Source of the DNA: a virus
Lineage: Duplodnaviria; Heunggongvirae; Uroviricota; Caudoviricetes
DNA: 2,691 nucleotides
Strand: one strand, 5' to 3'
Virus record (IMG/VR): IMGVR_UViG_2872185964_000012
The notes under the pieces were generated by a model. It was not told the DNA's origin and searched no databases. It worked only from the letters and a program-made list of their open reading frames with translations. How positions within the stretch are numbered: the first letter of the stretch is position 1; every line of letters begins with the position of its first letter. The translations under genes were made by a program, and so were the position numbers. Shown piece after piece: positions 2,042 through 2,691 of the stretch.

Positions 2042-2599
2042 ATTAAAAAAATCATTAATCCCCGTTATACCGAAAGTGGCGCAGTAGACTGTGACGTTTT
2101 TTTTGACGACAGGGACCAGGCAGTCCCCTACACAGCCACCGCTGATGATGTCGCTCCGACGGGTCAGCAAATCTGGCAGGAACTGCAAAGCGGCAAATGG
2201 GGTGAGATAGCCCCATTCACTGTGACACCAGAAATGCTGGAAGCGGCCAGAGAGGCCAGACGTCAGGAAATTGAAGCATGGCGCGCAGAACAGGAGGCGA
2301 AGCCGTTCACGTTTGAATGGAACGGTCGTATCTGGAATGCTGGTCCCGACTCACTGGGCCGCCTGTCCCCGGTAGTCATGCTGGCAAAATCTGTCACAGC
2401 ACAAACACATATGGCGTGGAGCGATGCCGATAATCAGCAGGTGAAACTGTCGATGCCGGAACTGGAAGAACTGGCGGCAGCAATGGTGCAGGCGCAGGTC
2501 GATCGCAACGATGAGATTTATCGCCGTCAGCGTGAAATGAAAGAGGAGCTGAGCGGTCTGGATGATTTGGCTTCAATTCGGGCGTTTGACGTTGAGTAA
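2042..2599 (+). CDS. tfa: Tail fibre assembly protein (Tfa), second copy of a different family; start codon uncertain (ATT 2042, or GTG 2222 as in the ORF track)
   Basis: Frame 2 is open from just after TAA 2039-2041 to TAA 2597-2599 and reads IKKIINPRYTESGAVDCDVFFDDRDQAVPYTATADDVAPTGQQIWQELQSGKWGEIAPFTVTPEMLEAA...LSMPELEELAAAMVQAQVDRNDEIYRRQREMKEELSGLDDLASIRAFDVE. The position immediately 3' of the fibre gene, the size (~185 aa) and the composition fit a fibre chaperone. There is no ATG, GTG or TTG in frame between 2042 and 2221. GAGG at 2024-2027 is a possible SD. Confidence 0.7.
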   Translation: MKKIINPRYTESGAVDCDVFFDDRDQAVPYTATADDVAPTGQQIWQELQSGKWGEIAPFTVTPEMLEAAREARRQEIEAWRAEQEAKPFTFEWNGRIWNAGPDSLGRLSPVVMLAKSVTAQTHMAWSDADNQQVKLSMPELEELAAAMVQAQVDRNDEIYRRQREMKEELSGLDDLASIRAFDVE

Positions 2600-2691
2600 T
2601 GAATAAGCCGCAACTGGCGGAATCACAGAAGACCGCTTTGCTTACCGAAGCGGAGTCTGTCATCCGGCCGCGGGGCGTGCTGTCAGGCTGA
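2599..2691 (+). CDS. Hypothetical small ORF (30 codons visible), translationally coupled to tfa; product unknown
   Basis: ATG 2599-2601 overlaps the tfa stop (TAATG). It translates to [30 protein letters not shown] and ends with TGA at 2689-2691, exactly at the window edge. It is below the ORF-track length cutoff. No family recognised. Confidence 0.25.
   Translation: [30 protein letters not shown]

Follow-up and report, generated by a model that had tools for sequence, protein, structure and literature searches.

Type III effector genes borne by phages are typically found downstream of the tail fibre genes, beside the attachment site (PMC3530523), and both the chromosomal ipaH classes a to e and the ipaH islands have already been described (PMC9046306, PMC4226921). 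Our literature search found no description of the ipaH 3' flank in the accessible ipaH papers, which treat the upstream regions. The locus studied here resembles the effector morons of lambdoid prophages and the ipaH islands of Shigella, in that the ipaH gene of its relatives follows a spacer and lies near the prophage end. It differs in the role of the open reading frame (ORF) at positions 2599-2691, which is very probably debris in the 3' flank of the cargo and not the cargo itself.

The other described systems that come close are the tail fibre assembly (Tfa) proteins, namely gpU of P1, P7 and Mu and gpG/Tfa of P2-like phages (PF02413). The ORF shares with them an ungapped DNA match over codons 111-145 (~80%) and, at the protein level, a match to gpU residues 113-145. 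However, only about 35 of the 175 codons are left, the N-terminal domain and the C-terminal end are gone, and the profile score falls under the Pfam cutoff. The relic also follows a chaperone gene of another type, DUF4376, and does not come directly behind a fibre gene. Remnants of tfa are commonly annotated in E. coli prophages. One of them, the 96-base pseudogene ECSE_RS29205 of SE11 ('incomplete, missing N-terminus'), is similar in being a short tfa fragment, C-terminal or internal, left between tail-fibre cassettes by recombination. Unlike remnants of that kind, the relic described here has an in-frame ATG from the flank of a neighbouring gene and belongs to a multicopy repeat linked to ipaH.

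The window, meaning the whole 2691-base stretch of DNA that was analysed, ends with the ORF. The ATG at 2599-2601 overlaps the TAA stop of the upstream gene (2596-2598) as TAATG, and the frame closes after 30 codons with a TGA on the final bases of the window (2689-2691). The overlap, the 30-residue frame and the terminal TGA had been reported in a sequence-only reading of this DNA, and all three are seen in the window sequence. The window contains 48 ORFs of at least 20 codons, and a length of 30 codons does not exceed chance expectation there. A Pfam search with the 30-residue form returned no match. An antisense frame of 98 codons (2394-2690) was set aside as a shadow of the DUF4376 gene. 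The features of the locus are as follows.

1976 to 2598, + strand: tail-fibre chaperone gene of the DUF4376 type, with its TAA stop at 2596-2598 (Pfam and annotation of relatives).
2596 to 2613, + strand: 3' flank of the DUF4376 gene, TAATGAATAAGCCGC, which gives the ORF its ATG and first two to five codons (ipaH-less relatives).
2599 to 2691, + strand: 30-codon ORF, as read in this record.
2606 to 2691 and a further 18 bases past the window end, + strand: internal relic of a P1 gpU/P2-type tail fibre assembly (Caudo_TAP) gene (DNA and protein homology).
2671 to 2674, no strand: C/G run with one base missing in this record (comparison with sequencing runs and complete genomes).
19 to 88 bases past the window end (8710-8779 in the relative L001), both strands fold: conserved 70-nt segment from the end of the relic to the ipaH stop (folding).

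The GGGG at 2671-2674 had been suspected of being miscalled, and the run is indeed one base short compared with every other source. An extra base at 2670/2671 was present in all eight sequencing runs examined. A G was inserted behind 2671 in each of the four DNA runs, which came from four different studies, and a G or C was added at 2670/2671 in RNA-run assemblies from three further organisms, in agreement with the raw RNA reads. The long form was also found in all 49 full copies of the stretch from nine complete genomes. None of these copies contained an indel, and the run read CCGCCGGGG, CCGCGGGGG or CAGCCGGGG in every one. A pattern scan of species-representative genomes that permitted the short form retrieved the long form only. 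Restoring the base gave a frame of 59 codons, which ends a single base ahead of the stop of a convergent ipaH gene. Thus, the out-of-frame tail RGVLSG and the terminal TGA result from the base missing at the C/G run. Conservation of this stop had been proposed as a check; the TGA is absent from all of the runs and from all 49 genome copies, and is found in this record alone.

Other positions in the window behaved similarly. Single bases were added at 753 (G), 1287 (G) and 1488 (C) in all four DNA runs, each within a G/C run, and one DNA run compared with the window over 1248-2691 showed one substitution and three indels. The occurrence of indels in G/C runs, with few substitutions, indicated homopolymer under-calling in the assembly of the window. 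The missing base at 2671 is most likely an under-call of this kind, and it may alternatively be a private, real 1-bp deletion in the genome of the window. Under either explanation, the 30-codon form is not ancestral. The insertions at 753, 1287 and 1488 correspond to the places where this record breaks the reading frame of the tail-fibre gene (622-2025), and these breaks also look like under-calls. We also noted substitutions in the tfa gene that lies upstream of the tail-fibre gene. The in-frame TAG of this gene at 171-173 is TGG (Trp), through A172G, in the contigs from each of the four DNA runs; either this amber codon is private to the record, or the run contigs derive from a paralogous copy. 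From 452 to 533, ten to eleven clustered substitutions separated the window from the 324-base contig of the runs over the same gene, which suggests collapsed paralogous tfa copies in the run assemblies, or a recombinant patch.

The main part of the ORF derives from the interior of a tail fibre assembly gene. From window position 2606 (8607 in L001) to L001 8709, the sequence aligned without gaps over 103 nt with the tfa gene of AR_0086 and with P1 U, at 79-80% DNA identity. In more than 1200 E. coli genomes, 92-103 bases of this relic matched the interior of annotated tfa genes at about 80% DNA identity (blastn E ~1e-15), and tblastn gave 64% identity over 44 residues (E ~1e-6) with gpU of P1/P7 and P2-like Tfa. 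Of the 175 codons, the relic keeps 111-145; 110 are lost on the N-terminal side and 30 on the C-terminal side. The 59-residue form matched Pfam Caudo_TAP (PF02413) at profile positions 66-98 of 131 with 17.5 bits (E=0.0048), under the gathering cutoff of 22.1 bits. Descent from a tfa gene is supported by both tblastn and blastn; a full-length Caudo_TAP protein of ~175-200 residues with its N-terminal domain was not found at this position. The protein-level alignment of the relic past gpU residue 145 (up to 163) was not taken as homology, since the DNA shows none there. The window retains the ancestral reading frame up to 2670. Past the missing base, the ancestral RAVRL is encoded at 2676-2690 in a different frame, and the final six codons of the ORF, with the TGA, no longer follow the frame of the ancestral tfa. 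No intact tfa closer than ~82% to the relic was found in the E. coli genomes or plasmids searched. The single full match labelled as a plasmid was a 25-kb S. flexneri record with ipaHb, and it may be the record of strain 0228. The strain 0228 record is suspected of mis-assembly (PMC9046306).

The gene immediately upstream of the ORF is a different chaperone gene. Relatives annotate its 207-codon frame as a DUF4376 protein, and the intact protein of a relative matched Pfam DUF4376 with an E value of 2.2e-16. In the window, the frame is broken at codon 22 of 207 by a TAA at 2039-2041, a GAA>TAA change compared with the relative. T2039 was reproduced in four independent DNA runs (organisms A-C) and was G in the runs of two other organisms, which indicates a real, lineage-specific nonsense mutation. 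As the gene stops at codon 22, little translation is left for a downstream ORF to couple to.

The start codon of the ORF could be traced to the same gene. In SE11 and EC21Z-048, which have no ipaH at this place, the DUF4376 stop is followed by TAATGAATAAGCCGC. The frame there reads MNKPP-stop, and a GC hairpin and a T run come after it. A third ipaH-less relative, P13-6, has ATA at the position of the ATG in the window. In all three, the DUF4376 gene is the last prophage gene, and homology to the window ends ~15-20 bases past its stop. Because TAATGAATAAGCCGC is also present in SE11 and EC21Z-048, the ATG of the ORF is part of the 3' flank of the DUF4376 gene. The start codon and the frame are kept together in near-identical copies only. 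The sole Shine-Dalgarno-like bases (GAG) stop 2 nt ahead of the ATG, and are AAG in some copies. Translational coupling at TAATG had been put forward for this overlap; the closure of the frame after five codons in relatives with the ATG, and the ATA in another relative, argue against it.

The last 692 bases of the window matched ten EIEC-type E. coli chromosomes over their full length, with 95-99.7% identity. In the relatives examined, an unannotated spacer of 179 bases runs from the DUF4376 gene to the stop codon of the convergent ipaH gene, which is reached about 90 bases beyond the end of the window. RefSeq annotates no gene within the spacer in these relatives, and no promoter-like site was found in 700 nt around the ORF in the sequence of a relative. 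This ipaH encodes an E3 ubiquitin ligase effector that is type III-secreted. Beyond it come a DinI-like gene and then host genes, the latter ~1 kb from ipaH; the locus in the relatives is the end of a lambdoid prophage remnant. The sequence-only reading had named the region 3' of the fibre and chaperone genes as an insertion point for cargo, and a convergent ipaH gene does occupy it in all annotated near-identical relatives. A moron would be an autonomous foreign gene set among phage genes, usually with a promoter and terminator of its own. The ORF is instead built of phage tail-module sequence, and the cargo is the convergent ipaH past the window.

The interval that separates the DUF4376 stop from that of ipaH was found in just 10 of the 5426 E. 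coli genomes, each of which has it at 2-6 places. At every place among the matches listed, a DUF4376 gene lies on one side and an ipaH paralogue (a, b, d or e) on the other, and a complete S. flexneri genome has six full copies. The block (3' end of DUF4376, tfa relic, hairpin, ipaH) recurs 2-7 times per Shigella or EIEC chromosome, so a short contig ends there. In two DNA runs, the depth rose 2-2.7 fold from ~2515, where other contigs also join, implying that the window ends inside a multicopy repeat. The genome of the window itself probably continues into ipaH, judging from its near-identical relatives. At the opposite end, positions 1-91 are the end of IS2 and match thousands of E. coli records beside a gene for an 'IS3-like element IS2 family transposase'. 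In four DNA runs, positions 1-91 were covered ~100x as deeply as the unique part of the window. The window is thus a short contig with repeats at both ends.

Decay is also visible elsewhere in these prophages. The tail-tip gene J contains an internal stop in the near-identical EIEC prophages L001 and L002 (2404-5883), and the tape-measure gene is frameshifted in one of the two. The ipaH-bearing prophages are therefore decayed in the relatives too. A different arrangement was observed in CFSAN029787 (NZ_CP011416.1, 520630-521409), where a different, intact tfa gene is followed by a 117-base DUF4376 3' fragment, the relic and ipaHa. In this copy, two chaperone-gene relics are stacked ahead of ipaH, which supports a layered history.

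The 70-nt segment between the end of the relic and the ipaH stop has no tfa homology and is strongly structured. On the + strand, a stem of nine pairs, seven of them G-C, is followed by GTTTTT (L001 8716-8737), and this hairpin would be a putative terminator as judged from the predicted fold. The folding energy of the segment was -35 kcal/mol on the + strand (z -2.9) and -30.4 kcal/mol on the ipaH strand (z -5.0). Across the 49 copies, only two substitutions were seen in the 70 nt, one of which (T8737C) converts a G-U pair to a G-C pair. A search of the spacer against Rfam, with E values up to 1, found no family.

These properties raise the possibility that selection keeps an RNA structure and not a peptide. 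The segment, set between the phage late operon and ipaH, would then terminate transcripts from both sides or stabilise their 3' ends, with the relic riding along. We consider this tentative, and place it somewhat short of an even chance. The stem with its GTTTTT, the strong folding on both strands and the scarcity and nature of the substitutions are all consistent with it. However, no clean U run follows the stem on the ipaH strand and no Rfam family was matched, and the conservation may merely mirror the recent common origin of the copies. A selected RNA structure complements the explanation of the ORF as a relic and is not exclusive of it. More difficult to reconcile with the data is a genuine small protein of 59 residues (30 in this record), a stand-alone piece of the Tfa C-terminal region translated by termination-reinitiation at TAATG. 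The overlap with the DUF4376 gene and the prediction of the ORF by some gene callers speak for such a protein, as does the 59-codon frame, which is open in all 49 genome copies with no indels. Nine distinct substitutions were found in this frame among the copies, six synonymous and three non-synonymous, and the split in the other two forward frames was 1:8 and 3:6 (binomial p ~0.014-0.026, or about 0.02). The copies are 97-100% identical, so these counts are tiny, and one reverse frame also gave 6:3. The synonymous excess could reflect weak coding constraint, and is the sole hint of coding. Against this stand the structure and origin of the frame. It retains codons 111-145 of the 175-codon Tfa only, and past residue 37 it has no homology and reads through the GC-rich, terminator-like hairpin. 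The Pfam score is under the cutoff, the ATG is inherited from a flank and elsewhere is missing or opens a frame that closes after five codons, a usable Shine-Dalgarno sequence is lacking, and in this lineage a stop at codon 22 interrupts the DUF4376 gene ahead of the ORF. The prophages are also decayed, with an internal stop in J.

The distribution of homologues also bears on the small protein. A collection of 5.8 billion proteins contained nine short clusters only, all from Shigella or E. coli and with at least 81% identity; a short homologue below 81% identity was not found in it. Some source records, NCBI entries among them, label the ORF 'tail fiber assembly protein, partial'. Frameshifted variants occur among the clusters, as do one fused with unrelated sequence and one from S. 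sonnei in which everything derived from tfa has been replaced; no diverged family was seen. Raw RNA reads covered the region at a depth of 2-4 on both strands, and no dedicated transcript was seen at such thin coverage. Overall, we regard the small protein as improbable, and the peptide of the ORF is presumably not made. The 30-residue micro-protein offered by the sequence-only reading gives way to a chimera, in which the 3' flank of DUF4376 is joined to an internal relic of tfa. That reading had also considered the ORF to be the start of something longer if its stop was miscalled. The miscall was borne out, in that the TGA does stem from a missing base, but the longer gene was not. With the base restored, the frame still ends at 59 codons in every copy, and it cannot exceed this length because the ipaH stop is met there. 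Furthermore, no + strand gene follows in the relatives. The probability that a longer + strand cargo (moron) gene was cut by the window end is therefore negligible.

We favor the explanation that the ORF has no function and is debris left where the tail-fibre module of a decayed prophage meets an ipaH effector cassette, and hold this to be very probable. The ORF is a chimera of three pieces. The ATG and first codons come from the 3' untranslated flank of the DUF4376 gene. The internal P1 gpU/P2 gpG-type fragment, beginning at 2606, lies in frame with this ATG by chance. The last six codons and the TGA arise from the base missing in the G run.

Beyond the observed homology, junctions, missing base, copy number and ipaH neighbour of the relatives, a history of the chimera can be proposed. 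In every chromosomal ipaH copy examined, the 3' flank has the same make-up: terminator-like hairpin, tfa relic and 3' fragment of DUF4376. Such uniformity suggests that the cassette was captured once, beside a P1/P2-type chaperone gene, and then spread by recombination inside tail-fibre modules. The ipaH cassette and its hairpin may once have lain beside a tfa gene of the P1/P2/Mu type, of which codons 111-145 alone survive. The block of ipaH, hairpin and relic may later have been joined to the DUF4376 3' flank, and the whole unit may then have spread among Shigella/EIEC prophages via recombination of tail-fibre modules. Two roles for the block could be imagined, and we think it very improbable that either applies. 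The DUF4376 fragment and the relic might be retained as an unvarying 3' 'handle' that lets ipaH move between prophages by homologous recombination between tail-fibre modules, an idea that fits the layered chaperone relics of CFSAN029787. Alternatively, the 59-residue Tfa fragment might be made and interfere with tail-fibre assembly of superinfecting P1/P2/Mu-type phages, which fits the weak 6:3 synonymous excess only.

The effector cargo site, the ipaH islands and the tfa remnants were already known, and nothing of a new kind is involved here. The biological weight of the result is small; it removes a false micro-protein candidate and shows that the record carries homopolymer under-calls that make or break reading frames. 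It also assigns the contig to a prophage remnant with ipaH, in a genome of the Shigella or EIEC type.
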